Source of the DNA: an uncultured Methanomicrobiales archaeon
Lineage (GTDB): Archaea; Halobacteriota; Methanomicrobia; Methanomicrobiales; Methanospirillaceae
Direction: 5' to 3'
Assembly: GCA_963697895.1 (NCBI GenBank)
Contig: OY969100.1
Coordinates: 160,001 to 224,000 of the forward strand
DNA length: 64,000 bases
Shown piece by piece: positions 16,953 to 59,927 of this stretch. The notes beneath the pieces are model-generated. The model was not told where the DNA came from. It searched no databases and saw only the letters and a program-made list of their open reading frames with translations. Position 1 is the stretch's first letter. Each line of letters begins with the position of its first letter. Both the position numbers and the translations under genes were made by a program.

Positions 16953-17480
16953 CCCCTGAAACCCATATATGGCTGCCTGATTTCATTTCACCGATCATCG
17001 CCGGATGGAGAGGGAGAAAATATGCAAGGGTCCCGGCGATCCGAACCCCCTGAAACCCATATATGGCTGCCTGATTTCATTTCACCGGTTCGTCGCCGGA
17101 TGGAGAGGGAGAAAATATGCAAGGGTCCCGGCGATCCGAACCCCCTGAAACCCATATATGGCTGCCTGATTTCATTTCACCGGTTCGTCGCCGGATGAAC
17201 AGGGAGAAAATATGCAAGGGTCCCGGCGATCCGAACCCCCTGAAACCCATATAGGCTGCCTGATTTCATTTCACCGGTTCGTCGCCGGATGAACAGGGAG
17301 AAAATATGCAGGGTCCCGGCGATCCGAACTCCCTGAAACCCATATAGGCTGCCTGATTTCATTTCACCGGTTCGTCGCCGGATGAACAGGGAGAAAATAT
17401 GCAGGGTCCCGGCGATCCGAACCCCCTGAAACCCATATATGGCTGCCTGATTTCATTTCACCGATCGTGCCGGATGAAGG
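16953..17480. repeat. Tandem array, ~5.5 copies of a 93-95 bp unit
   Basis: CTGAAACCCATAT recurs at 16956, 17050, 17145, 17240, 17333, 17426. Confidence 0.95.
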
Positions 17481-17559
17481 GAGGGGTTGAACCGGTGACC
17501 CGAACCATTAAATCCCGGTACAGCGATCACCCCTGTTCATCCGTGATGGATAGGTGAAA

Positions 17560-18471
17560 ATGATGAAGTACCTTTTAATCGTGATCGGCATCGTCCTGGC
17601 AGCAGTGCTCGCAGCCGGGTGTACCCAGCCGGGTGTACCAACACCCACTCCGACGGCGACGCCGACGGTGACCACCGGACCGACCGGGGTTCCAACGACG
17701 GTGAAACTGGCAACGAATACGACGCTCGGGATATACCTTGTCGACGAGAACGGGATATCCCTCTACTACTTTGCCCTGGACGTTCCCGGCAACGGCACGA
17801 GCGCCTGCAGCGGTAACTGCAGCCAGCTCTGGCCCCCGTTCTATACCGAGAATATCGTCGTGAACCCTCCGCTCTCCGCAGCGGACTTCGGGACGATTAC
17901 CCGGACGGACGGGACGAAACAGACCACCTATGGCGGATGGCCGCTGTACTACTACTCCGGTGACAAAGGCGTCGGGCAGACGAACGGGGAAAACGTCGCC
18001 GACCTCTGGTGGGTCGTGAAACCCGATTATTCGGTCGTGGTCATGAGAAACAACGCCGTGGGAACGTACCTTGCGGACCCCGCCGGAATGACGCTCTATA
18101 CACTCACACGCGACACACCCGGGGTCAGCACCTGCATCGGTAACTGCAGCCAGATCTGGCCGATCTTTTATGTGGAGCCGCCGGTCGTCGCACCGTCGCT
18201 CATCCCTTCGTCCGATTTCGCCCGGATAACCCGCACGGACGGCGGGTTCCAGACCACGTACCAGGGAAAGCCGCTCTACTGGTACTCAGGTGATACCAAA
18301 CCCGGACAGACGAACGGCGAGGGCTTCAACAACATCTGGACCGTCGCAACGGTAGCCGGCACCCCGCCGCCACCGACACCGACGACGGTCGCTACCACGG
18401 TACCGGCAACAACCCCGACGACCGCGCCGACGACCCAGTCGTCGTCCGGTGGAGGAGGGTATTACTACTAA
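17560..18471 (+). CDS. Secreted lipoprotein with Yx(FWY)xxD (Lipoprotein_15-type) repeats
   Basis: Lipobox LAAGC; duplicated G.xLY...D...S.C.GNC.Q.WP / QTTY.G.PLY.YSGD domains; Thr/Pro-rich linkers; AGGTGA RBS. Confidence 0.85.
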   Translation: MMKYLLIVIGIVLAAVLAAGCTQPGVPTPTPTATPTVTTGPTGVPTTVKLATNTTLGIYLVDENGISLYYFALDVPGNGTSACSGNCSQLWPPFYTENIVVNPPLSAADFGTITRTDGTKQTTYGGWPLYYYSGDKGVGQTNGENVADLWWVVKPDYSVVVMRNNAVGTYLADPAGMTLYTLTRDTPGVSTCIGNCSQIWPIFYVEPPVVAPSLIPSSDFARITRTDGGFQTTYQGKPLYWYSGDTKPGQTNGEGFNNIWTVATVAGTPPPPTPTTVATTVPATTPTTAPTTQSSSGGGGYYY

Positions 18472-18584
18472 TATCTCCCTTTCTTTTTTTCAGGCAATCT
18501 TACCCAAATTTCACCTTGGGCCACATGTATCCGGCCGCTTCAGGAAAGTCCTCTGCGAAGCGGCCCGGTTTATCCAAAAAACCC

Positions 18585-19196
18585 TCACCCGCACTTCTCT
18601 GCCGCTTCTGCGCAGGGGATGCAGAGAACCTTTCCTTCCCGTCTCCGGGTCCGGGGTTCGGCTACGAGTTCCCCGCAGCCGGCACAGATGACGGAGTTGA
18701 AAATACGGGCCTTTTCGGGGATCGGCACCCTGACCCGGCGGATGGAGAAGAGCTCCTCCGGGGGTGCCGCGAGGATCTTCGCGATCACCCCATCCATCCG
18801 CTCCCGGTACTCCTCTTCTTCCGCCGCGGTGGCGGTTCCGGCCATCACCCGCTGCCGGAGGTCACTGGCACGGCTGTCGATCCGCCGCGTGGAGGAGTCC
18901 GGATGCTGGGCGATCCGGACCGCCTCACCGGAGTCCCGGTTGATGAACGTATACACGTTCTTCCCGTAGTCCCGGAGGACCAGGTTCCCCTTCCCGAGGG
19001 TACAGCCGGTCAGGTACTGGACCGCATCGACCCCGCAGGCGTCGTGTTCGACGATACAGACCAGTTCCTCGTCGCCCGACCGTCCGGACCTGAGTTCATT
19101 CAAAGCGATCTCTGCTACCCGGTACCCGAGCGCGAGACCGGGACAGCGGTGCCCGTGGAACCGGACCACTGCGGAAAAGGATGAATCGGATGACAT
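18585..19196 (-). CDS. fmdE: FmdE/FwdE-family protein with C-terminal C4 zinc finger
   Basis: FHGHRCPG, CGVDAVQ, GCTLGKGNL, CAGCGE...CIPC. Confidence 0.85.
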   Translation of the reverse strand: MSSDSSFSAVVRFHGHRCPGLALGYRVAEIALNELRSGRSGDEELVCIVEHDACGVDAVQYLTGCTLGKGNLVLRDYGKNVYTFINRDSGEAVRIAQHPDSSTRRIDSRASDLRQRVMAGTATAAEEEEYRERMDGVIAKILAAPPEELFSIRRVRVPIPEKARIFNSVICAGCGELVAEPRTRRREGKVLCIPCAEAAEKCG

Positions 19197-19735
19197 GCGG
19201 GTTTCTCTCCGATCAGTATGGGGAGGGAATGGCGAAAAAGAGTTCAGTCGGGGCAGACCGTCCGGATACGGGAATGGACCGGTATCCCTCTCCGGCGGCA
19301 GACCGTCCGAATATGCAAAGAACGGAATGGAAAAATTCTGTCGCCGGAGGTGTCATGGACGATGAAAAGAACTATTCATCCGGAAGAGACCCGGGAAATC
19401 GGAACATGCGCGTGAGCGAGACGGAATCTCAAGTCAGATTAAAAAGAAGGAAAAGGCGGATATCAAGGTGTGAGGGGATAATTCCATTTTCCGGTCGTGA
19501 GATATGTGTGTGGTCCGGTGCGTGAACAACGGATATTTCGCGGTCCTGGCCATCCCGGATTGCCCGATCCGGTATGTCCAGCGACTGCCTGTATCTGTTA
19601 CGCTGATAATGAGATAAATATTACCGTGTTGCTATCGCCTTTCCGGGTCCTCGCGCTATCCTGTGCCACTCCTGAAGAAGGGAACGAATCAGGTTCCGGG
19701 AATCCGGACGGTGTCTCCATGGACAAAAAGAGAAC

Positions 19736-20085: not shown

Positions 20086-20322
20086 TCAGATCACAGGAGA
20101 TATCGCCAGGATGTTATTTCCCCGGATGACGACCGTGCCGAGGCTTCGCCCGCGCTGGTCCCCCTCAAATTCGATCGTCTCCTCCATGTGGATATTCAGA
20201 TACTCATCCACAGCGACCAGTCGACCCTGCAACTTCTTCCCTTCATCCTTTATTTCGACGGTAATTTTCGAATCCACGAGAGAAAAAACCTTTTTGATTG
20301 GCAATACGATACCGTTGACCAT
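20086..20322 (-). CDS. Sm-like (Lsm) RNA-binding protein
   Basis: GRLVAVDEYLNIHM (Sm1) and VIRGNNI (Sm2); start set at ATG 20322. Confidence 0.92.
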   Translation of the reverse strand: MVNGIVLPIKKVFSLVDSKITVEIKDEGKKLQGRLVAVDEYLNIHMEETIEFEGDQRGRSLGTVVIRGNNILAISPVI

Positions 20323-20417
20323 CTGCCTTAATTTGGAGGGCAAGATGATTAAAGTTTGTGCACCGGCAAGAGGCCTGGAATATGACACCCTGCGGTTATC
20401 GTGCCATTCCGGGTTGC

Positions 20418-20655
20418 CTTCCGGCTATCCGGCCATGCTTCAGGATGCCCGGGCCCCGGTCGCCGGTAAGCTGCCGGCTGTCCTGTCCTGCTCCGAGATG
20501 TCCCAGGTACCGAATCGCCCGGCAGGCCTTCCGGCTGTACTGTCCCGCTCCGAGATGTATCGGGTACCGATCGCTTGGAGTCTTCCGGTCGTCCCGGCCA
20601 TGCTTCAGGATGTTCGGGTCCCGATCACCGTCAGCTTCCGGTTACCCGGCCACCT
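20418..20655. repeat. Degenerate tandem array, ~4.3 copies of a ~54 bp unit
   Basis: Units begin CT(T/G)CCGG; CCGGCCATGCTTCAGGATG and GCTCCGAGATGT each occur twice. Confidence 0.7.
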
Positions 20656-22248
20656 GTCGACAGAGTGATCCCGGGTGCGAATCGTCCGGGACGGAGAAAA
20701 CCTTCTCACAGGTCGGGAACGACGTAGACTCTTCTTCTGCGGGTCGAAACCCTCCGGCGGGTGGCCTTCTTTCAGGGGGACTGCATATCGCTCCGCCCCC
20801 TTGAGCAGGTAATAAACGGCAAGCCTGCCGATCGTGAGGGAGATGATCCCCCCGCCGGTCATGGTGTGGGAGAGTCCGTGGGCGACCTGCACATCGTGCT
20901 CCATGCAGGCGCCGAAGAGCTGCCAGCGTGCCGGGGTCATCTGTGTCGCCGAGAAGGATTTACTCTCCGAGAGGCGTGCCGGGTCCATCGAGACGAAGTT
21001 CATCGGGACGACGAGCGCCCGGAGCCCTTTGATCCGGTCCATCAGCTCCAGGCTCTTCTGCACGTCCTCCTCCTCCTCGCCCGGGAGCCCGACGATCATC
21101 GTGCCCGCGATCGCCCAGTTCAGGTCGTGGAGGATCCCGAGGCTCTCGACCACGATATCCGGCCAGAGTTCAGGCCCGGAGGGGGCAGGTTTCCCCCGCA
21201 TGTGCTTCGCGATCAGTTTCGGGCTCCCGGTCTCGATCCCCGTCTGCGCCCCGAGGAACGGTACTTCGGGAAGGCTGTTCATGTAATCGGAGATCTCCTC
21301 GACCAGCCGCGGGTTATGATAGACCGTGGCGAGGGCAATGTGCGAGAACCCGATATTGGTGATCCCCTCGACCTTCCCCACCCGTTTGACGAGGGAGATC
21401 AGCTTCTCCGGATCGGGGTGAATCGGACGCCCCCCGTAGCAGAGCATGTCCTCCGCGTGGAGCAGGGAGCCGCGGTTACCCGCCCGGGCATTGACCTCCG
21501 TATCCCGGATGATCTGGTCGGCGGGTTTATGCCGGAGAGACTGGAGGGTCGGGGTGCAGAATGCGCAGCCCCGTCCGCACCCCCGGGAACACTCGACCAA
21601 CCCGTGGATCGTGGCATGGACCAGGGGCGGGATCTCCGCGGCCGGCACCTCCTCCCCGGTGATGATCGGCGGCACCACCTCACCGGCCAGGATCGCGGCA
21701 AATGCCTTCGGCACCGACCGTTCCCCTTCCCCGAGGTGCACGTGATCGATCCCCAGCCGCTCCCGGATATGGGGAGGTACCAGCTGCCAGGCGCTCTTTC
21801 CGCCGGCGACCGTGGTTGCCTTCCGCATCACCGGGTGCGCCATCAGCGCGAAGAACTTCATCCGGTTGTAAGGCGGGCCCGTCCGGACGAAATCGGAGAA
21901 GGTGGATGTCGGCGGGTTGATCCCGAGGAAATCATGCCCCGTGATCGAGACGATCCGGGTTTCATCCCCCGCCATCCGGGAGAGATCCCGGGGGTGGACG
22001 ACTGCGACCTCGTCCTCCGTAAACCCGTGCGAGAGGAGTGCCGCCTCGATCGACCGGACTCCGCCGTCGGCAAAGAGGGCCCGGCCGTGTTTCCGGGGTA
22101 CCGGCGGTCCGAAGGCATGGAAAAACATCCAGTCTGGCATGATCCCGCTCGGGGCACACATGGTAAACCCCGTGAATATGCCTCCCCGGTATTTGCTCAT
22201 CATCGTCTCGTCGGCCGTGAGGATGATCGCTGGCGATCTGCGTGACAT
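20605..22248 (-). CDS. Radical SAM protein with B12-binding-like N-terminal region, function unknown
   Basis: GCGRGCAFC CxxxCxxC motif, GEGE, GIETGS, VGLPGE. True stop is probably 20706 (YVVPDL*) if one extra base near 20728 is removed. Confidence 0.85.
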   Translation of the reverse strand: MSRRSPAIILTADETMMSKYRGGIFTGFTMCAPSGIMPDWMFFHAFGPPVPRKHGRALFADGGVRSIEAALLSHGFTEDEVAVVHPRDLSRMAGDETRIVSITGHDFLGINPPTSTFSDFVRTGPPYNRMKFFALMAHPVMRKATTVAGGKSAWQLVPPHIRERLGIDHVHLGEGERSVPKAFAAILAGEVVPPIITGEEVPAAEIPPLVHATIHGLVECSRGCGRGCAFCTPTLQSLRHKPADQIIRDTEVNARAGNRGSLLHAEDMLCYGGRPIHPDPEKLISLVKRVGKVEGITNIGFSHIALATVYHNPRLVEEISDYMNSLPEVPFLGAQTGIETGSPKLIAKHMRGKPAPSGPELWPDIVVESLGILHDLNWAIAGTMIVGLPGEEEEDVQKSLELMDRIKGLRALVVPMNFVSMDPARLSESKSFSATQMTPARWQLFGACMEHDVQVAHGLSHTMTGGGIISLTIGRLAVYYLLKGAERYAVPLKEGHPPEGFDPQKKSLRRSRPVRRFSPSRTIRTRDHSVDRWPGNRKLTVIGTRTS

Positions 22249-36174: not shown

Positions 36175-36209
36175 TTCCATTCATGAGGTCTCCCCCTCCG
36201 GTGCCCGAG

Positions 36210-37495: not shown

Positions 37496-37551
37496 CACAA
37501 GGCTTACGGGAGGTGGCGTCCCCGGCAGACGCGCAACCGACCCGAAATCAA

Positions 37552-39426: not shown

Positions 39427-39438
39427 GGCAGAAATTCC

Positions 39439-46825: not shown

Positions 46826-47260
46826 CCGATGGGGGGCGATCGTCAGGTTTCCTGCCATTCCGGGCTCGGATTTCCACCGGGTCGGATCAGGCGTTCAGGA
46901 GGAGGGAGGATCAGCATGATCAGCATTACCACGATCGCAAAAGATCGATAGGAGGGACAATCGCCCGGGTTCCTTCCACCAGGTCGGATCAGTCATTCAG
47001 GAAGGCAGGGGAGGAATACCCGCATTATCGGCTCACGGCGAACGATCATAGAGGGGATAATCGTCCGGGTTCCTTCCACAAGGTCGGATCAGTCATTTGG
47101 GAAGGCAGGGGAGGAATACCCGCATTATCGGCTCACGGCGAACGATCATAGAGGGGACAATCGTCCGGGTTCCCGTCATCGCGGGCGGTTTTCCACCGGG
47201 TCAGATCAGGCAAGGAGGTAGGGGAGGAGGATCAGCATGATCAGCATCACCACGATCACC
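46826..47260. repeat. Tandem array (~4 copies, 100-117 bp) derived from the site-2 protease 3' end
   Basis: TTCCAC.nGGTC.GATCAG at 46872, 46974, 47074, 47191; 46871-46936 mirrors 47190-47257. Confidence 0.85.
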
Positions 47261-48495: not shown

Positions 48496-48560
48496 TTCTA
48501 ACAGGTTATCGTTCCGAACCCATAAAACACATCGACGTTAACCCGAAGGAGGACGGTTTT

Positions 48561-49205
48561 TCAGGGTTCGAAATCGAAGATGCTCGTCTGTTCCAGCCGT
48601 TCGCGGAGGGCCCGGACGGTCTCCCAGCTCCACCGGGCGCAGAGGGGGGGCCGTCCCCGGGAGCGCATCTCTCCTTCCAGGAACGCGATCGTCACGTCAT
48701 CCGACGGGTACCCGCTCCCGACCGGACCGTACTGCTCCGCAAGCCGGGCGACCTCCCGGTCACGGGTGACTTTTGCCACGATGCTCGCCGCCATCACCAC
48801 CGGATAGGTCTCGTCCGCATGGTGCCGTGCCACCACCCGGCAGGGGAAACCGAGCCTCCCCCTGACCTGCCTCCCGTGACGCGGGGCAACAACGTCGCAG
48901 GCATCGACGTAGGCGACCGACGGGCGGATCCCCGCGATCACCCGTGCGTGTGCATCCACGAGGAGGACGTTCATCGTCATCCTCCTCCTCCGCTCGTCGA
49001 TCTCCCCGGGAGGGATGACGAGGACGGTGCTCGGGAATCTCGCGGTGATCTCCTCGTAGAGGAGCTCCCGCCGGGGGGGCGCCAGCTGCTTCGAGTCCTT
49101 CAGCCCGAGCGGGAGCAGCTCGCCCGGGTCTCCGCAGCCGACGGCGGCAACGACCATCGGGCCGAGGACCGCTCCCTTTCCGGCCTCGTCCACACCGCAG
49201 AACAC
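48561..49205 (-). CDS. rnhB: Ribonuclease HII
   Basis: GVDEAGKG, KDSK, VDA, AASIVAKVTRD, GSGYPSD. Confidence 0.96.
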   Translation of the reverse strand: MFCGVDEAGKGAVLGPMVVAAVGCGDPGELLPLGLKDSKQLAPPRRELLYEEITARFPSTVLVIPPGEIDERRRRMTMNVLLVDAHARVIAGIRPSVAYVDACDVVAPRHGRQVRGRLGFPCRVVARHHADETYPVVMAASIVAKVTRDREVARLAEQYGPVGSGYPSDDVTIAFLEGEMRSRGRPPLCARWSWETVRALRERLEQTSIFDFEP

Positions 49206-49226
49206 ACCATTCCGGTTTGATCTGCA

Positions 49227-49644
49227 GATATTTCAAGGATGGTACCGGGACAGTGCCGGGGATATTTCAAGGATGGTACCGGGACAGCGCCGGGGATATT
49301 TCAAGGATGGTACCGGGACAGCGCCGGGGATATTTCAAGGATGGTACCGGGACAGCGCCCGGGGATATTTCAAGGATGGTACCGGGACAGCGCCCGGGGA
49401 TATTTCAAGGATGGTACCGGGACAGCGCCCGGGGATATTTCAAGGATGGTACCGGGACAGCGCCCGGGGATATTTCAAGGATGGTACCGGGACAGCGCCC
49501 GGGGATATTTCAAGGACGGTACCGGGACAGTGCCGGGGATATTTCAAGAAGGGTACCGGGACAGCGCCCGGGGATATTTCAAGAAGGGTACCGGGACAGC
49601 GCCCGGGGATATTTCAAGGATGGTACCGGGACAGTGCCGGGGAT
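49227..49644. repeat. Tandem array, 12 copies of 34-35 bp GATATTTCAAGGATGGTACCGGGACAGCGC(C)CGGG, no spacers
   Basis: Unit starts at 49227, 49261, 49295, 49329, 49364, 49399, 49434, 49469, 49504, 49538, 49573, 49608. Confidence 0.97.
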
Positions 49645-49709
49645 GTGCCGAAAAAAAGGAGCGAAAAGAACGGGTTCCCGGTTTTTTTTTTGCAGCCGGT
49701 CCCCGCAAC

Positions 49710-50906
49710 CTATTTGATTTTGCCCATCAGTTTTGCGAGTTCGACGAGGAGAGAGGGGTTATGCCGGATCAGTTCCTTGATCAGGTTGAACGTGGAGAAC
49801 TCCTGCAGGTTGATCCGGGAGATCGAATGGGCGAGCGCGTTCAGCTTCTCGTCCGAGAGGCCGATGAAGTACTCCTTGATGTGCCAGTTCCGCGCGATCG
49901 TCTTTCCCATGGGGGACACCCGCCACCGGGCATCGTAGGGCAGGAGCCCTTCACACGAACATTCATCGTTCGCTATCGCTTCGCACGCGACCTCTGCCGC
50001 GAGCCTTCCCGTGAACATCGCATTATAGATCCCGCCGCCGGTGATCGGGTCGACCACGCGGGCCGCATCCCCGACGATCATGAGCCCGTCGCCGACCGTG
50101 CAGGGGAGCGGACGGCAGACCGAAACGCCGCCGACGATGCATTCGATCGTCTTTCCTTCCGGGAAATGCGCCTGCACGAACCGGTCCAGGTAGTCCTTTG
50201 CCCGGTGGCCGGTCCCGCTCTTCCTCCCGGAGATCCCGATCCCGACGTTCGCGGTCCGGTCTCCCTTCGGGAAGACCCAGACATATCCCTCGGGCGCGAT
50301 ATGGTTACCGAGATAAAACACCGTCGTGTGCGGGTCGATATCGATATCCGTCATGAGATACTGTGCCGAACTCATGATCTCCCTGATCGGGACCGTCGTA
50401 TCGAATCCCGACCAGCGGGCGAACTTGGACTCCACCCCGTCCGCCGCGATCACGACATCGGCATCGACCCGGGAACTGGTCCCGCAACAGTCGAGAAAGG
50501 CGCCTTTCACCGCTCCGTTCTCGATCACCGGGCAGGTTGCACGGGTCTTCACCGCGATGTCGGAGCCCATCTCCGCCGCCTGCCAGACGAGCTCCCGGTC
50601 GAAGACCTTCCGGTCGAGGATATAGCCTACCTTGCCGCCGGCATGCCGGGACTCGAGGATCATGGACGTGCCGTCGGGCGAGACGAGCTCCGCCCGTTTC
50701 ATATCCGCGGAGATCCAGCGCGGGTCAGGGTCGATGAACTCGGCGAGCGCCTCCTTCCCGATCCCTTCCGCACACCGGACCGGGGTGCCTATCGCGGCCC
50801 GCTTCTCCACGAGGCAGACGGAGAGCCCCTTCTCTGCCGCGGTGCGTGCCGCGATCGCCCCGCCCGGGCCTCCCCCGATGACGAGCACATCATACCGATC
50901 CTTCAT
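49710..50906 (-). CDS. Digeranylgeranylglycerophospholipid reductase (GGR)
   Basis: [40 protein letters not shown]...P.TGGGI; start ATG 50906. Confidence 0.93.
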
Positions 50907-51072
50907 GCACAACCTCCAGCGCCCCGAGGGGGCAGACCTTTGCACAGATGCCACAGCTGGTGCAGTTTTCCTCCACCTCCAGGTAGGCGTCGATCAGCTC
51001 GAGCGCCCCTTCCGGACAGACCGACACGCAGCACCCGCAGTAGCCACAGATATCCCGGTGAACCCGTAACAT
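50890..51072 (-). CDS. 2[4Fe-4S] ferredoxin
   Basis: [12 protein letters not shown] and [12 protein letters not shown]; overlaps the GGR start. Confidence 0.93.
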
Positions 51073-51155
51073 TCCTGATCCTGTTGGAGAGGTATTCCCA
51101 TAATCCTTTCTTTGGTTCCCACCGGCCCCGGGAAGGGAATTCCCGGATGTCCGGT

Positions 51156-52275
51156 TCAGAAAAAAGAGAACGAGCCGTACCGCCCTCCGCCGCCGGGGGA
51201 GAGCGCCACCCGCCCGTCCCGGAGGGATGCGATCGCCCCGCCCGCCTCCGGGTCGCAGGCGATAATCTCGTCCAGGGGGGCTTCGGTGAGGACCGCGATC
51301 TCGTTCCCGAACCGGGCAATCAGACGGTCGTACCGGACCCGGACGCGCTTCGCCCCGGGGGAGGAAACCCCGGAGACGCGTGCGACGATCTCTGCGAGGG
51401 GGATCACGCGGATATACGGCGGACGGGAACCCGGGTCCCCGGCAGAGAGCTCCCGGGCCCTATCGGCGACCCCTTTTTTGATGAGCCCGCGATCCGCCGG
51501 GCAGCGCCACCCGAGGCTTGCCGCTTCCTCGTGCGAGTACTGCCGGAAACACCGCACGCAGGCCGTGCGGTTGTATTTCCCCTCTTCGGGGAAGAGACCG
51601 GCATTCATCAGGATTCGGCCGGCGCGGATGCTCTCCAGCACGCCCGCCGGCGTCCTCCGGTCGACCGCGATCCGCGTCCATTCCCGCCCCAGCCGGAAGG
51701 GTTCCGGGCTGTGTGCGTCCGAGTTCGAAAGGAAAGGGACCCCGGAGAGCCCGGGGATGCCGGCACCATAGACTGCTGTCGGCAGAGAGGCCGAGCTCGA
51801 GGAAGTCGATCGGTTCATCCCCGTAAGAGCCGGCGACGTGGTCGAACGCCGCATAGAGGGAGGTCCAGGGGGTGAACGCATGGGCCGGCCCGATAAGTCC
51901 CCCGCATGCATGCGCAGCGGCCGCAATCTCCCTGCCGGAAAGCCGCACCCGCGGCCGCCCTCCGGTCCCGATGTCGCGGCTTGCCGGTGCAAGGATCCGG
52001 GCGAGGTCCGCGAATCCGGGAAAGTCGCTCATCAGGATCAGGTGATGGACCCGGTCGCGGTCCTCCACTTCTGCCGAAGGAACGATGAGGATGCCGGCAT
52101 CGTTATCGAGGAACGGTTCCCAAACCTCCCGCCAGGCGGCAAGGAGTGCATCGCCGCTCCCGAGAACAGAGAGCCCCTTACTCGTGCAGGCAGCGATCAG
52201 GTTCTCCGGCCGCATCGACCGGGATGAACCGATGGAAAACGGGGAGTGGATATGGAGATCGGCATCTGCATACAT
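51156..52275 (-). CDS. PHP-family Zn-ribbon protein, TIGR00375/EndoQ-like (apparent +1 frameshift near 51771)
   Basis: DLHIHS, VHHL, PAHAFTPW, ELGLSAD, then NSDAHS, GKY...CVRC...CP, PGGGGRYG. Confidence 0.88.
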
Positions 52276-52276
52276 T

Positions 52277-53032
52277 TCAGACGAAGTACCGGAGTTCCTC
52301 GTCCCGGGAGACCCGTTCCCCCTCGATCAGGTGCTGGATCACCTGCTCCATCTCGGTCCCCCGCTGCTGGAGCCGGGTCGGATCCACCGTGATGCCGAGG
52401 AGGGTGGAGAGAACCCGGAGCAGGCTTGCGGCACTGAGGGGATCGACGAGGTACCCCGAGGTCTCCCCCATCAGGCAGATCCCGTCCATGCCCCGTTCCA
52501 CCCCGAGGCCGAGCAGGAGGCCGGCTGCACCGACGATGCCGCCGCCGGGTTCTCCCCGGTCAAAGACGGCGCCCGCCGCCTCGACCTCCGGACGGAGCTC
52601 CGGCCGGTTGACCGCCCCGAGCACCCGTGGCTCGTCGACCAGGTGGCCGACCCCGTACCCGCCGAGCGTATAGATCCGTTTCACGCCGCATGACGAAGCG
52701 ATCGAGAGGTAGCGGTCGGCAAGATGGTAGTGCCCTTCATGCGTTCCGCTCTGGTGATCGCCGACGAGAAAGAGGATACTCAGGTCCTCCCCCGCATAAT
52801 GGTACAGCTCGTTGTTCGCGAGCCTGACGGTCCCGCTCTCATCGATGATCACCTGCGGGGGAAAATAGACTGCATGAATCTCGGCGACCTTCCGTGCGCC
52901 GAGCTCCTCGATCAGGTGCTCCGCAACGAGCTTCCCGACGTACCCGATCCCGGGCAGCCCCTCGATCAGGATCGATGCCCGGATCTCCTCTTCCGCGATT
53001 CCCGGTGAGAACTGGACCGTGATCTCTTTCAT
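52277..53032 (-). CDS. Proteasome assembly chaperone PAC2 family protein
   Basis: EGLPGIGYVGKL, FPPQV, GDHQ, TLGGY, GGIVGAAG, MGETSGYLVDP; start at the last MKEITV copy (53032). Confidence 0.92.
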   Translation of the reverse strand: MKEITVQFSPGIAEEEIRASILIEGLPGIGYVGKLVAEHLIEELGARKVAEIHAVYFPPQVIIDESGTVRLANNELYHYAGEDLSILFLVGDHQSGTHEGHYHLADRYLSIASSCGVKRIYTLGGYGVGHLVDEPRVLGAVNRPELRPEVEAAGAVFDRGEPGGGIVGAAGLLLGLGVERGMDGICLMGETSGYLVDPLSAASLLRVLSTLLGITVDPTRLQQRGTEMEQVIQHLIEGERVSRDEELRYFV

Positions 53033-53286
53033 CGGCACCCGTCCCTCCGGTATTTTCCGCAGGGATCCTGCGGGGAGAACTGGACCGTGATCTCTTTCAT
53101 CGGCACTCGCCTGACCGGTATTTTCCATAGGGATCCTGCAGGGAAAAATGGACCGTGATCTCTTTCATCGGCACTCGCCTGACCGGTATTTTCCGTAGGG
53201 ATCCTGCGGGAAAAAAATGGACCGTGATCTCTTTCATCGGCATTCGTTCCTCCGGTATTTTCCATAGGGATCCTGCGGGGAGAACC
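53007..53286. repeat. Tandem array, 4 copies of a 68-69 bp nop10-end/PAC2-start junction
   Basis: GGACCGTGATCTCTTTCATCGGCA recurs; minus-strand ATG at 53237, 53168, 53100, 53032. Confidence 0.95.
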
Positions 53287-53386
53287 GCGCCGGATGGGGA
53301 GTGCCGGTCGGCTCCCCGCAGGCAGGGCAGACGGGCTGTAAGGTATAGGTACCGTCTGCGGGGCAGCGCCGGATCCTGCCCTTCAT
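53234..53386 (-). CDS. nop10: H/ACA RNP protein Nop10
   Basis: Below ORF-track cut-off; MKGRIRRCPADGTYTLQPVCPACGEPTGTPHPARFSPQDPYGKYRRNECR*. Confidence 0.95.
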   Translation of the reverse strand: MKGRIRRCPADGTYTLQPVCPACGEPTGTPHPARFSPQDPYGKYRRNECR

Positions 53387-54171
53387 ACCGCCTTTCCGGA
53401 CTTGGGTTTCTTGATGAACCTGCCTTCGCCGCCGGCCCGTTCAACGACGGCGATCGCAGATCCCGCAGCCTTTTCTATCGCTTTTTCCGCCTTCTTGTAG
53501 TCCGGTGCCGTCACCTTGATCCGGTAGGCCGGAGCCCCGAGATAGGTGAGTTCGATATCCACGTCCGGGATCTTCGGTTCCGCACTCCGGAGCGCCCGGC
53601 GGATGATATTGACCCCCTCAGGCTTGGTGGAGAGGAGGATGATATTGCCCGATACCGTCACGCGGGGGACCTTCACGTTCTCCCGGGCGACGGTTGCGAG
53701 CGCCTCCCGGACTTTCCGGTCGAGGCCCGTCTTCTCGAGCACCTCGTCCCCGTTCACGACGATATCTTCAAAAACAGAATAGAGGTCCCCGTATTGCTTA
53801 TAGAGCGCCGATTCGATCGCCCCGGCCTCTACGCCGGATGCCTCGGCCGCAAACCCGATCCATTTCTTCGATTTGGCCTCGTTCTTCCACTCCCGGATCT
53901 TTTCACGCCGCTGGTGTTCGTTGACATCCTTGAGCGAGAGGTCGATGTGGCCGCGGGAGGTGTCCACGTGGAGCACCTTGCAGACGACCTTCTGCCCTTC
54001 CCGGATATGGTCCCGGATGTACTTGATCCAGCCGGTCGCGATCTCGGAGATCGGGATGAGTCCCTCGCGGTCTTCGTACTCGTCAAGACTCACGAACGCG
54101 ACAAAGTCCCGTACATTCCTGACCGTGCAGACGACCAGTTCCCCTTCCGTCGGCCATTCCCTCTCGTTCAT
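53383..54171 (-). CDS. eif2a: Translation initiation factor 2 subunit alpha
   Basis: WPTEGELVV, LDEY, WIKYIRDH, IDLSLK, GAPAYRI. Confidence 0.97.
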   Translation of the reverse strand: MNEREWPTEGELVVCTVRNVRDFVAFVSLDEYEDREGLIPISEIATGWIKYIRDHIREGQKVVCKVLHVDTSRGHIDLSLKDVNEHQRREKIREWKNEAKSKKWIGFAAEASGVEAGAIESALYKQYGDLYSVFEDIVVNGDEVLEKTGLDRKVREALATVARENVKVPRVTVSGNIILLSTKPEGVNIIRRALRSAEPKIPDVDIELTYLGAPAYRIKVTAPDYKKAEKAIEKAAGSAIAVVERAGGEGRFIKKPKSGKAV

Positions 54172-54178
54172 CCGGCGA

Positions 54179-54367
54179 TCACTCGAACGTGGCCAGGATC
54201 TCGGCCTTTATAACGGCTTTTCCCCCGGTGGGTTCCGAAAGGACCTTTCCGCAGACGACGCAGACCACCGGGGTGCTGGCCTTCTCAAAGACGATCTGTT
54301 CGTTCTCGCAGTCCGGGCATTTCACCCGGAAAAACCTGCTCCGGTTCTCTCTCTGTAGTTGTACCAT
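54179..54367 (-). CDS. rps27e: 30S ribosomal protein S27e
   Basis: [18 protein letters not shown]...CVVCG...PTGGKA. Confidence 0.97.
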
Positions 54368-54373
54368 TCCCCT

Positions 54374-54652
54374 TCACTCCGTCAGTTCGAATTTTGCAAT
54401 CCGGAATCCGCTTCTCAGGTGTGCCTTTTTGCAGACGCTGCAGCGGTACCGCACATTGATCTTCTTCGTCGGTTTGTCTCCGCCGGGTACTTTGGAGAAC
54501 TTCCCCATATTGCCCACGCTTCCCCTGCGTGCCTTCTGCCGGTCGATCCAGTGAAGTCCGTTGGTCTTGGCCTTCTTCACCTTCTCCACCTCATGCAGCT
54601 GGTGATTCCTGCAGAACGGGCAGTATGTCCTGAATTTTGCTGGCATTTTCAT
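54374..54652 (-). CDS. rpl44e: 50S ribosomal protein L44e
   Basis: TYCPFC..H..H, KPTKK, CSVC. Confidence 0.97.
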
Positions 54653-54705
54653 GAAATTGGCCTCTGTATTTCTATAACAAATATCAGTATTATTTGAAGA
54701 GATTC

Positions 54706-54713
54706 ATATATAA
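54706..54713 (-). promoter_or_regulatory. Putative TATA box of the rpl44e-rps27e-eif2a operon
   Basis: TTATATAT on the minus strand ~55 bp upstream of rpl44e. Confidence 0.55.
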
Positions 54714-54908
54714 GAGTGTGGGATTACTCAACGTTCCGGAAAAATCCGGCCCGTACTGCGGGATCATGCGGGACAGGAGGTTGCCGGATAGTTTTTCGGG
54801 ATGTACGCCCCCGGTCCGGAGCCTCATTTTCCGGGAAAGCACCGATCTCTCCCGGATTGAAGGGAACCGGTCCCGGTCTCTTCGCATCTGCGGGGATCAG
54901 GCCGCATA

Positions 54909-55532
54909 TCAGGTATGGGGGAGATCGCCCGGGCTTTCCACGGAGAGGACGATCTTCCGGTCGCAGAGGACCGCGGCATTCCGTTCGGGGAGCGTCACGA
55001 TATCCTCTTTCTCGAGCGCATATATCCTTCCGTCCACTCCCATGAACGGTTCCATCGTCTCGAGCGCCCGGACCAGCACGTAGGGCGGCGAGAGCGGTCC
55101 GGCCTCCCCGGGGGGTGCCTCCCCCTCGGCGGCTTCCATCTGGCCCGGGATCGGTCCGGTCCCGGAACCGGTGAGGAAGCACCGGCATTCTGCGATCCCC
55201 AGGGTGATCTGGTCGAACATCGTCCGCTCGGCCGGGAGCATCCGCTTCAGCTCGTCGCGGTCGATGTACAGGCCGTCCTCCTGGCTGGTGGCGAGGGCGA
55301 GGATCTTCGCGGTGCGGGCACGGAACAATTCGGCCACAATCTCCCGGAGGCTCCCCACCTCCTCGATGAGGAGACGGGTCTCTTCGGAGAAGGGGTCCTG
55401 CTGGGCATAGACCTCCGTGGTGAGACGCTCGATCTCCATCCGGGCCTTTTCGAAGAGGTCGGCGGGCAGGGAGAGGAGCCTTCCGCTCTCCCGCTCGGTG
55501 AGGAGGAGGGTGTGGAGCTCTTCCAGCTGCAT
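54909..55532 (-). CDS. GINS complex protein (Gins51-like)
   Basis: ER...L..LP.D.F, R..KI, C-terminal B-domain FMGVDGRIY.L..EDIVTLP..NA; conserved position after priS. Confidence 0.85.
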   Translation of the reverse strand: MQLEELHTLLLTERESGRLLSLPADLFEKARMEIERLTTEVYAQQDPFSEETRLLIEEVGSLREIVAELFRARTAKILALATSQEDGLYIDRDELKRMLPAERTMFDQITLGIAECRCFLTGSGTGPIPGQMEAAEGEAPPGEAGPLSPPYVLVRALETMEPFMGVDGRIYALEKEDIVTLPERNAAVLCDRKIVLSVESPGDLPHT

Positions 55533-55534
55533 CT

Positions 55535-56683
55535 TCAGGCACCTCCCGCGATCTCGGCGATCCCCCGGCAGCAGAGGAAGACCGCGAGTGCCTCGGGGAC
55601 GGTTGCCTCCCCCTTCGGGAGCGTATGCTGCTCCCCGAGGAGCGTCATCGAGACCGGCAGCGAACAGGCGACCGTCACCGGGCGGGTTCCGAAGATCACT
55701 GCGTCGACGAGGGGATCGAAATCGGGAAGGTCCCGGAGCGGCACCCGGGTTACCCGGAGACCGCTCCCGCCGTGCAGGGAGGTGGGCATCCGGATCAGCC
55801 GCCGGGTATCGGTGGTGACCGGTTCGTCGGCGAGCGCCGCCTTCTCCCGGAGCCTCTGCCGGAACTCCCCGTCCTTCTCCTCCTGCAGCGCGGCAAGGAT
55901 CGCCCACGTCGTCCGGTCTTCCCGCTTTCCGAAGGAACCGCGCCCGAGTTTCTCCGCGAGCTCCGCTCTTCCCCGGTAAAACCGTTCCGCAGATGTTTTC
56001 CCCACGCCCTCAAGCGACATGAGCCGTTCCACCGCCTCTTCTTCTGTCCGGCCGTCGAGCCACGAAAGGTACTCGAGCAGTGCTGCTATATAGCGCTGCT
56101 GCCACCCGCGGGGTGAAGGTGAGGGGGCCGGGAGCAGGAGCTGCGGGTCGATCCCGATCCCGCAGACATAGTCGATCAGCTCCCTCCGTTCCGCGCTCGA
56201 CAATCCCCGCACCGCGAGATCCCGGATATGGACATGATACCCCCGTCCGCCGGAGAAGACCACGTCCAGGTGCTGCCGGTCGAACCCGAGCTCCCCGGTG
56301 AGCATCTCCACGAGCTTCTCCGTCTCGACCTTTACCCGGGCGAGCATCTGCTCGTAGGGGCCCCGCACGATATGGTCCGCATCGAGGTCGAAGACGAGGT
56401 CCGCACCTGCCCATCCCTTCCCGTCCATCGTCCCGGCACCCGGCGTCGCGTAATACGCGACCGAGTAGTACGCATGTGCGGGGGCCATGGCCCGCAGGTA
56501 CTCCAGGAGTTCTGTCCGGCCGGGAAATCCCAGGTGCCGGCGCATCCGGATCTCCGGGTAATCGGGGTCGAAGAAGACGAATCCCCACTCCCGCTGGTCT
56601 GCTGACGGGGGAGGGACCAGTTGCTCCCCGGAGTAATATTCACCGAACCGCTGCCGCAAAAATTCAAGGGTGGCCGCCTTCAT
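55535..56683 (-). CDS. priS: DNA primase catalytic (small) subunit
   Basis: REWGF, DLVFDLDAD, FSGGRGYHVH, DEPVT.D..RLIR.P.SLH. Confidence 0.96.
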   Translation of the reverse strand: MKAATLEFLRQRFGEYYSGEQLVPPPSADQREWGFVFFDPDYPEIRMRRHLGFPGRTELLEYLRAMAPAHAYYSVAYYATPGAGTMDGKGWAGADLVFDLDADHIVRGPYEQMLARVKVETEKLVEMLTGELGFDRQHLDVVFSGGRGYHVHIRDLAVRGLSSAERRELIDYVCGIGIDPQLLLPAPSPSPRGWQQRYIAALLEYLSWLDGRTEEEAVERLMSLEGVGKTSAERFYRGRAELAEKLGRGSFGKREDRTTWAILAALQEEKDGEFRQRLREKAALADEPVTTDTRRLIRMPTSLHGGSGLRVTRVPLRDLPDFDPLVDAVIFGTRPVTVACSLPVSMTLLGEQHTLPKGEATVPEALAVFLCCRGIAEIAGGA

Positions 56684-57000
56684 CCCCGCTCCTGATCAGG
56701 TATGGACCCTTCCCGTGATATCCGTGTCTCCGGTACCAGGGCCGCACCCCGATCCCGGATCAGGTGCGGACTCTTCCCGTGATATCCGTGTCTCCGGCGT
56801 CAGGGCCGCACTCCGCTCCCGGATCGGACTAGCCCCTCGGGGTGGTACCCGCGTCTCTGGTATCCGGCCGCCTCATCGCCGCTCCCGGATCGGACTGGCC
56901 CCTCGGGGTGGTACCCGCCGCCTCATCCCTGCTCCCGGATCAGGTACGGGCCCTCGCGGTGATATCCGTGTCTCCGGTACCAGGGCCGCACCCCGATCCC
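56673..57000. repeat. Degenerate tandem array (~5 copies, 50-66 bp) of the elp3 3' end / priS start junction
   Basis: GTGATATCCGTGTCTCCGG at ~56715, 56779, 56959; GCCGCCT(T)CATC at ~56673, 56867, 56917. Confidence 0.88.
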
Positions 57001-58491
57001 GCTCATCACCGCGATGCGCCGGTACCCGGCCGCCCACGCCGCCTCTTCCGCGGCGGCGAGGAGCCGGTCGCCGAACCTCCGGTGCTGCCGCTGTTCCGGG
57101 TCGGGCGACCGTCCGATCGGGACCATGCTCCCGTAGACGTGGAGCTCCCGGATGAGCGCGGCATCCTTCGTCTCCTCCCGCCACCGGTCACCGCCGGTCC
57201 GGAGCCGGGCAAACCCGATCAGGGAGTCGCCGGAGACCGCGGAGATGAAATGCTCCTCCCCCCCGCAGCAGGAGTACCGTTCTTCCGTCATTTCAGCCGC
57301 TGCCTCGGACGGGAGGCGCCCGATCTCCCGGCACCGGATGCACCGGCACCGCCCGCCCTGATCCTCCAGCCGGTCCCGGGCGAGCTGGCGGAAGTTGCTG
57401 TGCCGCGAACCGGCGACGATCAGCTTTGCCGGGATGTCCCGCTGGATCCGCTGGAGCCGGACATACGGGGGGAGCAGGGACTTTCCGTATGCACAGAGGT
57501 CGATCAGGAGATCCTCATCGTAGGGGGCATACGCCCCCTCCTGCCAGAGCGCCTCGATCTCCGATCCCGGCGTGACCAGGGTCGGGTAGATCTTCAGGAA
57601 GTCGGGGCGGAACCGGTCGTCCGAGAAGAGCCCCTCGAAGAGGTGGCGGTCGTCCGCGATCGTGCTCCCGGGGAGGTTCGGCATCACATGGAACCCGACC
57701 TTGAGCCCGGCGTCCCGGAGGAGCCGGTTTGCGTTCACGGTGTCCGCAACGGTGCAGCCCCGCCGGTTGAAGGCGAGGATCCGGTCGTCGATCTGCTGCA
57801 CCCCGAGCTCGACCTTGGTGACCCCGAGGCTGAGCATACGGTCGATCTCCGGCTGCCGGCACCAGTCGGGGCGGGTCTCGAACGTCATCGCGACGCAGCG
57901 GACCGGTGCGGTCTCGTTTCTCGCAAAGACCTCCTCTCTGGTTGGGGAACCGCCGGTCGGGACCTTCCCGTATTCGTTCATCGCCCGGATGCACGCGGTC
58001 ACGAACCCCTCCTGGTATTCCCAGGGACGGGCGGTCATCGTCCCGCCCATCACGATCAGCTCCGCCTTATCCACCGCATGCCCGAGGGCCTCGAACTGTC
58101 CGAGCCGGGCCTGTACCTGTGTATACGGGTCGTAGTCGTGCTCCCGTGCCCGGAGGGCGGCGGGTTCCTCCCCGGTATAGCTCTGCGGCGACTGGAACGG
58201 GTGATCGGGCCCCCCGGGGCAGGGGAGGCATTTCCCGTGGGGGCAGGGGGCCGGGGAGGTCATCACGGCGATCGGGGCGACCCCCGAGAGCGTCCGCCCG
58301 GGCTTGACCAGGAGGAGTCGCCGGAGTTTTTTCCTGTCCTCCGGCGACGCGGCGGCAAGGAGGAGCGAGTTCCGGGGAACCACCGGGAGGGAGTACTTCC
58401 GTGAAACAACCAGTTTTATCCGGTGAATATCCGGGTTCGGCTCAGAAAAGCACAGGGATATGATCTCCCTGCAGACGTCGCGTTCATCCAT
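56923..58491 (-). CDS. elp3: tRNA uridine(34) acetyltransferase Elp3 (radical SAM + KAT)
   Basis: RTLSGVA, CPHGKCLPCPGG, SYTGEEP, ETRPD, RIQRDIP, CIRCRE, RELHVYG, SGIGVR; start ATG 58491. Confidence 0.95.
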   Translation of the reverse strand: MDERDVCREIISLCFSEPNPDIHRIKLVVSRKYSLPVVPRNSLLLAAASPEDRKKLRRLLLVKPGRTLSGVAPIAVMTSPAPCPHGKCLPCPGGPDHPFQSPQSYTGEEPAALRAREHDYDPYTQVQARLGQFEALGHAVDKAELIVMGGTMTARPWEYQEGFVTACIRAMNEYGKVPTGGSPTREEVFARNETAPVRCVAMTFETRPDWCRQPEIDRMLSLGVTKVELGVQQIDDRILAFNRRGCTVADTVNANRLLRDAGLKVGFHVMPNLPGSTIADDRHLFEGLFSDDRFRPDFLKIYPTLVTPGSEIEALWQEGAYAPYDEDLLIDLCAYGKSLLPPYVRLQRIQRDIPAKLIVAGSRHSNFRQLARDRLEDQGGRCRCIRCREIGRLPSEAAAEMTEERYSCCGGEEHFISAVSGDSLIGFARLRTGGDRWREETKDAALIRELHVYGSMVPIGRSPDPEQRQHRRFGDRLLAAAEEAAWAAGYRRIAVMSGIGVRPWYRRHGYHREGPYLIREQG

Positions 58492-58501
58492 GAAGGAGAT
58501 G

Positions 58502-58768
58502 TTAGTGTTCCACCGCCACCCGTCCGGAACCGACCTCGGGGGAGTACTCAACCATGAGCGGGCGCTGTGCCCTGATATGGCTGACAATTTCGTCGCCGAG
58601 CGTCAGAATCGCGTCTTTGTGGCATTTTTTGTTTTTGTGAATATGAACAGGAGAGATTTCAAGTGCTGAATACCGTTTTGTCTCGATTTCATCACCGGTG
58701 ATGGATTCATGGTATTTTTTGATGTGAATCATCAACATGTGTAAATGAAGCAATTCTTCCTTTTGCAC
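58502..58768 (-). CDS. UPF0058 family small metal-binding protein
   Basis: (M)QKEELLHLH...ISPVHIHK.K..HK.AI..LG; GTG start 58768. Confidence 0.88.
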   Translation of the reverse strand: MQKEELLHLHMLMIHIKKYHESITGDEIETKRYSALEISPVHIHKNKKCHKDAILTLGDEIVSHIRAQRPLMVEYSPEVGSGRVAVEH

Positions 58769-58818
58769 GCTATCACCTAACCTCAAAAATTACTTTTTCC
58801 CTGACCAGATATAGCTTA

Positions 58819-59706
58819 TTGGTGATCTTTATATCCGATATCGGGAGGGTAACAGGCGCCCTGGCGGGGCTTGCGATCGGCGATGCGATGGGTGCGCCCT
58901 TCGAGGGGTACCCGGCTCCGGCCCGGAGAATCACGGATCTTTCCGGGGGAGGCCCGCGGCTGCGTGCACCCGGCCGGTTCACCGACGACACCCTCCAGGC
59001 GCTGGCGGTTGCGGAGTCTCTCTCCCGCTGCCGCGGGTTTCATGCCGGAGACATGGCAGAACGGCTCCTCGCCGGGTACCTGCGGTGCCCGGAGTTCTAC
59101 GGCCCGACCTCCGGCCTCGCCCTCGACCTGATCTCGCGGGGCGTCCCCCCGGAAGAGGCGGCACGGATCGCCCACCGGATGAACAACGGCAGCAGGAGCA
59201 ACGGCAGCGTGATGCGGGGATTCCCCATCGGGATATACTACGCGGGACCGGAGGTGGCCGTCGTGAGCTCCTGTGCCTCCCGCCTGACCCACTACGACCC
59301 GCTCCCCGGCGCCTGCTCCGCCTGGCTGAACGGGATGGTCTCGGCACTCTGCCGGGGGGCGTCCCGCGAGGAGGCATTTGCCCGTGCTCTCCGGGGGTGC
59401 CGGGACGCGGAGGTCGCCGGGTACCTCGGCGGGTACCACCGGTACGACCCAGAGGCGGGACTGGACGCCCTCCTCTGCAGCCACGCGGCGCTCTCGGTTT
59501 TCATGGAGAACAGAAATTTCGCCGACGCAGTGATCGCCGCCGTGAACATGGGCGGTGACACGGACACTGTCGGGGCATGCACGGGAGCACTTGCCGGTGC
59601 ATGCTACGGGATCGGGGCGATCCCCCGGGACTGGCTCTCTCATCTCCAGGATGCGGACACGGTGATCGGGACGGCGGTACGGCTCTGGACGGTTTCTCAG
59701 GATTAG
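58819..59706 (+). CDS. ADP-ribosylglycohydrolase family protein
   Basis: GLAIGDAMG, FTDDT, NGSVMR, LTH, GGDTDTVGA. Confidence 0.93.
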   Translation: MVIFISDIGRVTGALAGLAIGDAMGAPFEGYPAPARRITDLSGGGPRLRAPGRFTDDTLQALAVAESLSRCRGFHAGDMAERLLAGYLRCPEFYGPTSGLALDLISRGVPPEEAARIAHRMNNGSRSNGSVMRGFPIGIYYAGPEVAVVSSCASRLTHYDPLPGACSAWLNGMVSALCRGASREEAFARALRGCRDAEVAGYLGGYHRYDPEAGLDALLCSHAALSVFMENRNFADAVIAAVNMGGDTDTVGACTGALAGACYGIGAIPRDWLSHLQDADTVIGTAVRLWTVSQD

Positions 59707-59771
59707 GCCGGGGTCCCTTTCCTGACCCGGTTCAACTGTTCGTTCAGAACGCTTCGCCGGCTTTCTGTTTT

Positions 59772-59927
59772 CCTGTCCGGTCGTTCAGATCCATCCGGTG
59801 CTCTCCGTTCACCGGACTTCGGTTTCCTTCAGAGGGGACAGTGCCTGTCCGGATATCCCGATCCATCCGGTGCTCTCCGCTCATCGAAAACCCGGTCTCC
59901 TTCCGGGAGGGGACAGTGCCTGTCCCC
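59772..59927. repeat. Imperfect duplication (~72-75 bp x2) ending in palindrome GGGGACAG-TGC-CTGTCCCC
   Basis: GATCCATCCGGTGCTCTCCG at 59788 and 59860; GGGGACAGTGCCTGTCC twice. Confidence 0.75.

Follow-up and report, generated by a model that had tools for sequence, protein, structure and literature searches.

Tandem arrays at gene ends and junctions of a Methanomicrobiales archaeon are probably minisatellites born in place by a known duplication process under selection for intact genes

Why should short tandem arrays, each with a unit of its own, lie again and again at the ends, junctions and promoters of genes along one stretch of an archaeal chromosome? The question is raised by a window of 64,000 nucleotides (nt), bases 160001-224000 of the single-contig genome of an uncultured Methanomicrobiales archaeon (2,091,725 bases, 53.8% G+C, completeness rating 93.85%). 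A first-pass annotation, made from the letters of this window, had pointed to at least eight such arrays and proposed an undescribed, locus-independent system that duplicates DNA at transcription start and stop sites. Of the 31 genomes compared, this one alone represents its genus, and its PAC2 protein is at most 72% identical to those of relatives. We consider that the arrays are probably minisatellites born in place, through a known duplication process combined with selection against broken genes, and that no new system is involved. The feature is of an ordinary kind, namely a set of locally born minisatellites that is dense and well preserved.

The positions of such arrays over the whole genome carry most of this argument. 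Tandem Repeats Finder (TRF), with a cut-off of period at least 20 and score at least 100, gave 74 arrays, 27 inside genes and 47 not. The period is divisible by three in all 27 in-gene arrays against 17 of the 47 outside genes, and the 30 arrays with other periods all lie outside genes. Depletion from coding sequence, with only in-frame units within genes, is one of the marks of repeats derived from microhomology-mediated tandem duplication (MTD), and it is what was found here. For the 47 non-coding arrays we used a null model in which the arrays were collapsed, a segment of each observed period was placed uniformly, and each placement was kept unless it fell wholly within a gene, so that about 24% of positions were kept; the genes came from our own codon-usage caller, with nop10 added manually. 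The counts were the following:

Intergenic: observed 26, expected 25.3
Over a 3' end: observed 13, expected 8.4
Over a 5' end: observed 5, expected 8.8
Across a co-directional junction: observed 3, expected 3.7

The model fits (chi-square p = 0.20; 3' versus 5' contrast p = 0.059). In this sense, the enrichment test that the first-pass annotation had proposed, once run genome-wide, does not support targeting to stop codons, and the simpler alternative which that annotation had itself mentioned, random duplication with boundary-spanning survivors, is the better reading. The mild excess of 3' over 5' ends is what would be expected from selection, because duplication of a start codon would shift the promoter away from its gene. 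Enrichment at TATA boxes is not supported either: runs of at least six A/T are found in a fraction of 0.30 of the units against an expected 0.56 +/- 0.07, and a crude TATA-like hexamer in 0.04 against 0.16 +/- 0.05, both being depleted.

The probable course of events is as follows. A short segment present once at the locus, 27-185 nt long across the genome, would be duplicated head to tail, the likely route being slippage during replication, or a switch of template, from one short direct repeat to another (microhomology arms), and some duplications would later expand or contract by further slippage or unequal recombination. The process would not be aimed at gene ends, and a duplication wholly within a gene would survive only if in frame. 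A duplication over a stop, a start or a whole junction leaves one intact copy for each flanking gene and is thus nearly neutral, so that arrays accumulate in spacers, over 3' ends and over ATGA junctions. With time the arrays would decay by point mutation, and copy number would diverge between close strains. The slippage step itself is what we infer from these patterns, together with a role of GC-rich microhomology in raising the local duplication rate.

In the window, TRF returned eight arrays at six of the loci noted before, and the arrays at 20418 and 59772, which fall under the TRF score, were traced as decayed direct repeats by a direct-repeat search. The claim of at least eight intergenic arrays with units of their own therefore holds, the units being unrelated. 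The arrays, in window coordinates, are these:

Array 1, 16953-17478, no strand assigned: TRF unit of 95 nt, 5.6 copies, 97% matches
Array 2 (decayed), 20418-20630, no strand assigned: three copies of 43 nt, spacing 53-57 nt, 63-86% identity
Array 3, sub-array a, 37053-37235, plus strand: TRF unit of 68 nt, 2.7 copies, 96%
Array 3, sub-array b, 37247-37464, plus strand: TRF unit of 46 nt, 4.7 copies, 88%
Array 4, 46954-47173 by TRF, extended to 46827-47257, minus strand: unit of 100 nt, 2.2 copies, 95% (TRF)
Array 5, 49227-49644, minus strand: TRF unit of 35 nt, 12.1 copies, 96%
Array 6, 53003-53285, minus strand: TRF unit of 68 nt, 4.1 copies, 88%
Array 7, sub-array a, 56694-56825, minus strand: TRF unit of 64 nt, 2.1 copies, 88%
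Array 7, sub-array b, 56858-56968, minus strand: TRF unit of 50 nt, 2.2 copies, 82%
Array 8 (decayed), 59772-60127, no strand assigned: unit of 72-75 nt, two to three copies, 84-100% over parts

Their anatomy places the true end of the upstream gene in the first copy and the true start of the downstream gene in the last. Array 6 is a tandem copy of the ATGA overlap between the nop10 stop and the PAC2 start: nop10 (53234-53386, minus strand, 50 amino acids (aa)) is intact in the first copy, where its TGA overlaps the ATG of the next unit, and PAC2 (52277-53032, minus strand) is intact in the last, with its ATG at 53032. Each unit runs from the nop10 codons F-S-P-Q-D through ATGA to the PAC2 codons Q-F-S-P; one inner copy is 69 nt long, with an extra T in a T-run that may be an assembly error. 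Array 7 repeats the C-terminal end of elp3 (56923-58491, minus strand) with its ATGA overlap with the primase small subunit gene priS (55535-56683, minus strand). As judged by sequence comparison, arrays 6 and 7 are duplications of the ancestral ATGA stop/start overlap of nop10/PAC2 and elp3/priS, respectively. The unit of array 3 is made of the last ~30 nt and the stop codon (37062-37064) of the ARMT1-like/DUF89 gene 36183-37064 (plus strand), with the stop TAA turned into TGA in later copies, and the array lies upstream of the A/T-rich promoter region of cbiM (37620-38312, plus strand). Array 4, in a convergent spacer, derives from the M50 site-2 protease gene 47206-48495 (minus strand), namely from its C-terminal coding end and the sequence downstream of it; the coding end is copied at 46905-46936, and the repeat search shows about four decayed copies over 46827-47257, with a unit of 100-117 nt and 65-93% identity. 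The four copied stop-codon regions described before (DUF89, site-2 protease, nop10 and elp3) were thus verified. Array 2 lies between an LSM gene (20086-20388, minus strand) and a radical-SAM gene (20605-22248, minus strand), and a related fourth copy at 20594-20630 covers the stop region of the latter. Array 8, downstream of the ADP-ribosylglycohydrolase gene 58819-59706 (plus strand), has one pair of copies 72 nt apart (84%) and another 139 nt apart (76%). Pfam matches agree with the names given earlier to the neighbours (ARMT1-like/DUF89, CbiM, M50 site-2 protease, RNase HII and geranylgeranyl reductase, eIF2-alpha and PAC2, primase small subunit and Elp3, ADP-ribosylglycohydrolase). No gene is interrupted by an array, as had been claimed; Pfam matches or relatives' alignments extend to the ends of the flanking genes.

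The remaining two arrays raise the question of regulation. Array 1 occupies the divergent spacer between gene 16428-16931 (minus strand) and a Lipoprotein_15-repeat gene (17554-18471, plus strand); each unit carries the palindromic CCATATATGG, whose first-unit copy lies about 30-39 nt upstream of the minus-strand ATG of 16428-16931. Array 5 is situated between the stop of the geranylgeranyl reductase gene (49710-50954, minus strand) and the start of rnhB (48561-49205, minus strand), with a short G+C hairpin and GAAATATC in each unit, and its gene-proximal copy presents a putative A/T-rich promoter-like element about 22-31 nt upstream of the rnhB ATG. Candidate A/T-rich promoter-like elements are thus found upstream of both 16428-16931 and rnhB, in agreement with the TATA-like elements reported at two genes. 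It is very unlikely that some arrays are kept for regulation, a judgement that covers two variants jointly: multiplied promoter elements upstream of rnhB and 16428-16931, and a chain of short open reading frames (ORFs) linked by ATGA that passes ribosomes from nop10 to PAC2, like the coupling proposed for mycobacterial interspersed repetitive units (MIRUs). The first variant would fit the repeated A/T-rich element of arrays 1 and 5, whose gene-proximal copy seems to stand at leaderless-promoter distance (22-39 nt upstream of the ATG); A/T runs are, however, depleted in units genome-wide, and no array in the window matched Rfam at the gathering score, the sole match being a tRNA at 12091-12163. 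The second would fit the period of array 6, which is 68 (2 mod 3), so that inner ATG frames end in the next ATGA and nop10, a 46-aa ORF, a 23-aa ORF and PAC2 follow one another through ATGA overlaps; in mycobacteria, a MIRU ORF is described as coupled, at a spacing of -4 nt, to the gene at which it is inserted (PMC12548453). Nevertheless, such a chain is the automatic outcome of duplicating an ATGA junction, and that of array 7 is interrupted by a TAG. For either variant, a conserved function is hard to reconcile with arrays that are absent in all relatives examined and variable between close populations.

The arrays are not expected by chance, nor are they copies of a dispersed repeat. Twenty trinucleotide-block shuffles of the window gave no TRF row at period at least 20 and score at least 100, and one row at score at least 50. 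Among the 47 non-coding arrays of the genome, only 2 of 1081 unit pairs were alike at E <= 1e-3, both of them pairs of sub-arrays of one locus, which rules out MIRUs or another dispersed intergenic family (REP, MITE). A CRISPR array was ruled out since the copies abut head to tail without spacers, and Borg-type repeats since only 3 of the 47 arrays are perfect and the A fraction is 0.26. Matches between copies are at least 95% in 13 of these arrays, 85-94% in 24 and below 85% in 10; this spread supports the earlier view of repeated events over time, that is, independent local duplications of differing age.

Comparison of orthologous junctions, which the first-pass annotation had recommended, indicates that the arrays are lineage-specific. 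At nop10/PAC2 none of 19 relatives' loci has an array, and the order eIF2-alpha/nop10/PAC2 is kept with a single junction; at elp3/priS none of 11 has one, and 10 of the 11 show the plain ATGA overlap. At both junctions, therefore, we see head-to-tail copies of a sequence that is single-copy in relatives, another mark of MTD-derived repeats. The eleventh elp3/priS locus (L151, G012:C1:1716247-1720383) has about 50 nt between the two genes instead of the overlap, and its primase small-subunit match is part of an open frame of 624 aa that contains a single in-frame TGA. A separate search with PAC2 gave 10 loci, one of them from a close relative, too few to compare this region broadly. In the nearest-genus locus, L002, where nop10/PAC2 is single-copy, nop10 and PAC2 contain one copy each of the 10-mer TTCTCCCCGG, at a spacing of 68 nt (counted by hand from the sequence) that equals the period of array 6. 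The suggestion of a microhomology-mediated process thus finds support in a 10-nt repeat 68 nt apart at one ancestral-type junction only. More indirect signs are that the fractional copy is at most 0.3 in 26 of the 47 non-coding arrays, against about 16 for a uniform spread by our estimate, and that simple two-copy arrays mostly leave remainders of 0-20 nt.

Close populations differ at the arrays. Contigs of four metagenomes (X1, X3, X5 and X14; 90-99% alike) were aligned over 37001-57000. At array 4, the X3 contig joins 46747 directly to 47200 (flank 137 nt) and the X1 contig makes the same join (flank 27 nt), the array being absent from both, and X14 has 104 nt instead of 434. At array 5, X14 skips from 49288 to 49636, with about 2 of 12 copies left (flank 255 nt), and X1 and X3 have 66 nt in place of 448 nt; X14 also skips most of array 3. 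Copy number thus differs between close strains at arrays 3, 4 and 5, as read from k=31 contigs of related populations, and array 4 gives the firmest result, its copies being diverged. At arrays 6 and 7, dips in depth and broken contigs were left out of the evidence. Of the interpretation offered at the outset, independent local duplications at different times are upheld, and the arrays are also lineage-specific and variable between populations; targeting to stops and TATA elements, a rate independent of locus and novelty are not upheld.

It is hardly credible that a noisy long-read metagenome assembly produced the arrays as artefacts, even though the assembly itself invites the suspicion. Its genes are often frame-split: when relatives' open frames were searched against bases 12-412 kb and two adjoining pieces in different frames were counted, 24 distinct loci per 207 strong queries were split, and reciprocal controls in three complete relatives gave 0 of 66, 3 of 188 and 2 of 179, so that this assembly has about ten times more; these counts include some antisense-frame (antisense-ORF) artefacts, common to the controls. 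Over the whole genome 54 of 590 queries were split, duplicates not yet removed. There are also 1-nt differences from all related populations, and the strain itself is in no public run, the best of them containing 0.37 of the sampled words. The assembly has an extra base at 39249 and at 51772, both outside homopolymers, which the contigs of X1, X5 and X14 lack; position 41221, by contrast, is within a G-run. These extra bases are either consensus indel errors or very recent mutations or pseudogenes. Gene 51156-52275 (minus strand), in which 51772 falls, is split, and a nine-G run at 41209-41230, in a cobalamin-cluster region, has one G more in the contigs of two related populations. Given so many frameshifts, single-base length differences between repeat copies are unreliable as biology. 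Random artefacts, however, would be expected to fall in genes about 76% of the time and with any period, which is not the pattern of 0 of 30 and 27 of 27 given above; substitutions distinguish the copies; contigs of other populations break, rearrange or differ precisely at the array loci; and complete genomes of relatives carry the same type of array at lower density.

The arrays are unevenly spread along the chromosome, so that the locus-independence that had been proposed does not hold for the rate. The overall density of non-coding arrays is 22.5 per Mb; it reaches 86 per Mb in the first 290 kb, as against 12 per Mb in the rest of the genome. Of the 47, 25 lie in these 290 kb, which contain 17.7% of intergenic bases (p = 4e-8). 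With arrays masked, local G+C at these arrays has a median of 0.585 versus 0.529 at random intergenic positions (p = 1.7e-8), and no such shift was found at in-gene arrays. GC-rich 8-nt repeat pairs 20-200 nt apart at tolerated positions correlate with arrays per 20-kb bin (Spearman 0.41). The composition of the genome is isochore-like, mean gene G+C at third codon positions (GC3) ranging over 0.56-0.79 between 100-kb bins and G+C per 20 kb over 0.35-0.64, with a low-GC island (0.35) at genome 80-100 kb. A mosaic or chimeric origin of the GC-rich blocks was considered: identity to the relative G014 against local GC gave r = 0.42, a value confounded by paralogous hits, and the paired comparison had only 2-3 low-GC loci. 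An effect of origin or terminus was rejected as too weak, with Cdc6 genes at 1.709 and 2.074 Mb and cumulative GC-skew extremes at about 0.2-0.3 and 1.87 Mb. As a separate observation, very large open frames (454-1949 aa) at C1 684-710, 957-963, 1216-1220, 1312-1315, 1487-1491 and 1810-1814 kb contain long in-frame repeats with periods of 264-435 nt and up to 10.9 copies, and are probably surface proteins with repeated domains.

Density also differs between genomes. Arrays of period 20-199 nt and score at least 100, per 400 kb, were counted as follows:

This genome, five tiles: 31, 6, 13, 6 and 5
G012: 1
G014: 8
G004: 1
G003: 5
G026: 1
G025 (60.5% G+C): 1
G019: about 11 distinct arrays (our count)

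The density here is high with respect to four of the seven sampled relatives. A possible explanation, which we regard as unlikely, is a lineage-specific duplication rate raised by the repair genotype, through Ku/LigD end joining or a mismatch-repair defect, the selection filter remaining as above. Such a raised rate could explain the high density; the candidate route for Ku/LigD would be synthesis with strand displacement and the joining of microhomologies. The inventory of repair genes that had been called for shows MutS, MutL_C, Ku and LigD parts in this genome; NucS was searched for and not found. The Ku family is present in 8 of the 31 genomes searched, this one and 7 of 30 relatives, and here it belongs to an archaeal-type end-joining kit, with Ku beside the LigD primase-polymerase and the LigD phosphoesterase beside a second ATP-dependent ligase, at C1:465742-467092 and C1:1917989-1919098, outside the window. 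Besides the presence of this kit, the idea draws on the tile counts against those of the six complete relatives (1, 8, 1, 5, 1, 1) and on a contrast by Ku: the Ku-positive genomes sampled (this one, G014 and G019) average at least 8 arrays per 400 kb, and five Ku-negative ones have 1-5. This contrast, however, is post hoc, compares 3 with 5 genomes and is phylogenetically confounded, the Ku-positives including the nearest relatives; moreover, the places sampled in G019 are not orthologous, and its arrays include old or coding ones.

As for mismatch repair, the MutS domain V family is present in 30 of the 31 genomes, this one included, and mutS here (C1:1226737-1229380) is interrupted by one frameshift, at about 1228850 (near residue 177), right where an ATG stands, and is followed by an intact mutL. 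This frameshift would favour a repair defect, but it is untrustworthy given the frame-split counts of this assembly and its controls, and G014 has MutS in an intact 889-aa open frame. We rejected the mutS defect as the cause, since the whole assembly is rich in frame-splits and related populations lack two of the 1-nt insertions. NucS was rejected too, since it does not discriminate: of 18 genomes searched in the same family, 17 gave no match at E <= 0.001, and that of G017 is marginal (24.1 bits). Neither repair idea accounts for the clustering of arrays in one region. Distinctly unlikely in our judgement is a broader variant, a Methanoregulaceae-like sub-lineage with a raised tandem-duplication rate focused on GC3-rich isochore-like regions and repeatedly splitting coupled ATGA junctions, which may be tied to the Ku/LigD kit or to locally elevated recombination. 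If this were true, coupled ATGA junctions would become strain-variable spacers with decoy starts and stops.

Several points weigh against birth in place by slippage and selection as the full account. The microhomology at the right spacing was seen at one locus only, and in a relative of a different genus rather than in the true ancestor. GC-rich microhomology is only 2.2-fold enriched in the first 300 kb, as against 6.8-fold for the arrays, and the clustering persists at GC >= 0.56 (20 of 32 arrays versus 34.9% of intergenic bases, p = 0.0013). The relative with 60.5% G+C has 1 array per 400 kb, so that GC alone does not set the rate. The null model took its genes from a crude caller (2093 genes, 82.5% coding). 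The population contigs are k=31 short-read assemblies able to collapse near-identical repeats, which affects the array 5 result most, and since the best public run contained only part of the sampled words, the copy numbers given here come from the assembly alone. The regional hot zone and the differences in density between genomes are left unexplained by birth in place, which we nevertheless favour.

The arrays provide clear textbook cases of the birth of minisatellites from archaeal gene junctions, for example a conserved ATGA overlap that has been multiplied to four copies and whose seeding microhomology can still be seen in a related genus. Once selection for intact genes is taken into the model, no special mechanism is required for their position at stop codons and promoters. 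The seven-fold concentration in GC3-rich parts and the possible link with end joining bear on local rates of structural mutation in archaea. Additionally, such arrays yield false short ORFs and wrong start calls in annotation.

How do these arrays compare with known systems? In literature searches on tandem repeats in this order and on archaeal minisatellites, the sole basis of this negative, we found no description of arrays of such kind in Methanomicrobiales. MIRUs are units of 40-100 nt in operon spacers whose copy number varies between strains, and they form one dispersed, apparently mobile family of related units. Unlike them, the units here are unrelated between loci and copied from adjacent genes. 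Mycobacterial MIRU-VNTR (variable number of tandem repeats) loci resemble array 6 in that their unit ORFs are joined to the gene downstream through an ATGA-type overlap (PMC12548453). The repeats of Borgs, extrachromosomal elements of Methanoperedens, share with our arrays locus-specific units, arrays starting in ORF ends and variability in populations (PMC9879509). There, all in-ORF Borg units are divisible by three against 14-38% of intergenic ones, to be compared with 27 of 27 and 17 of 47 here. Borg repeats are also described there as perfect, A-enriched and carried on AT-rich extrachromosomal elements (PMC9879509), whereas only 3 of our 47 arrays are perfect, unit composition is A 0.26, C 0.27, G 0.25 and T 0.22, and the setting is one of core genes of the chromosome, in GC-rich regions.

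MTD has been described as arising de novo in bacteria, archaea and fungi, nearly neutral and depleted in coding regions (PMC13167724), and a preprint states that long GC-rich arms are about 1000-fold likelier to duplicate (bioRxiv 10.64898/2026.02.28.708716). An effect of that size could cover part of the gap between microhomology supply and array density. In MTD, as probably in the arrays studied here, single-copy segments between short direct repeats are duplicated head to tail and are able to expand. Unlike the published MTD events, the duplications here have become fixed, reach up to 12 copies and have partly decayed; within this one genome they are unusually dense and clustered by region, and arms are visible at one locus only. 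Both have in common nearly neutral dynamics, depletion in coding regions, probably a preference for GC-rich arms, and occurrence in archaea. Indeed, MTD with purifying selection in coding regions was already published for bacteria, archaea and fungi (PMC13167724; bioRxiv 10.64898/2026.02.28.708716), and what had been put forward as an undescribed system is better placed beside it.

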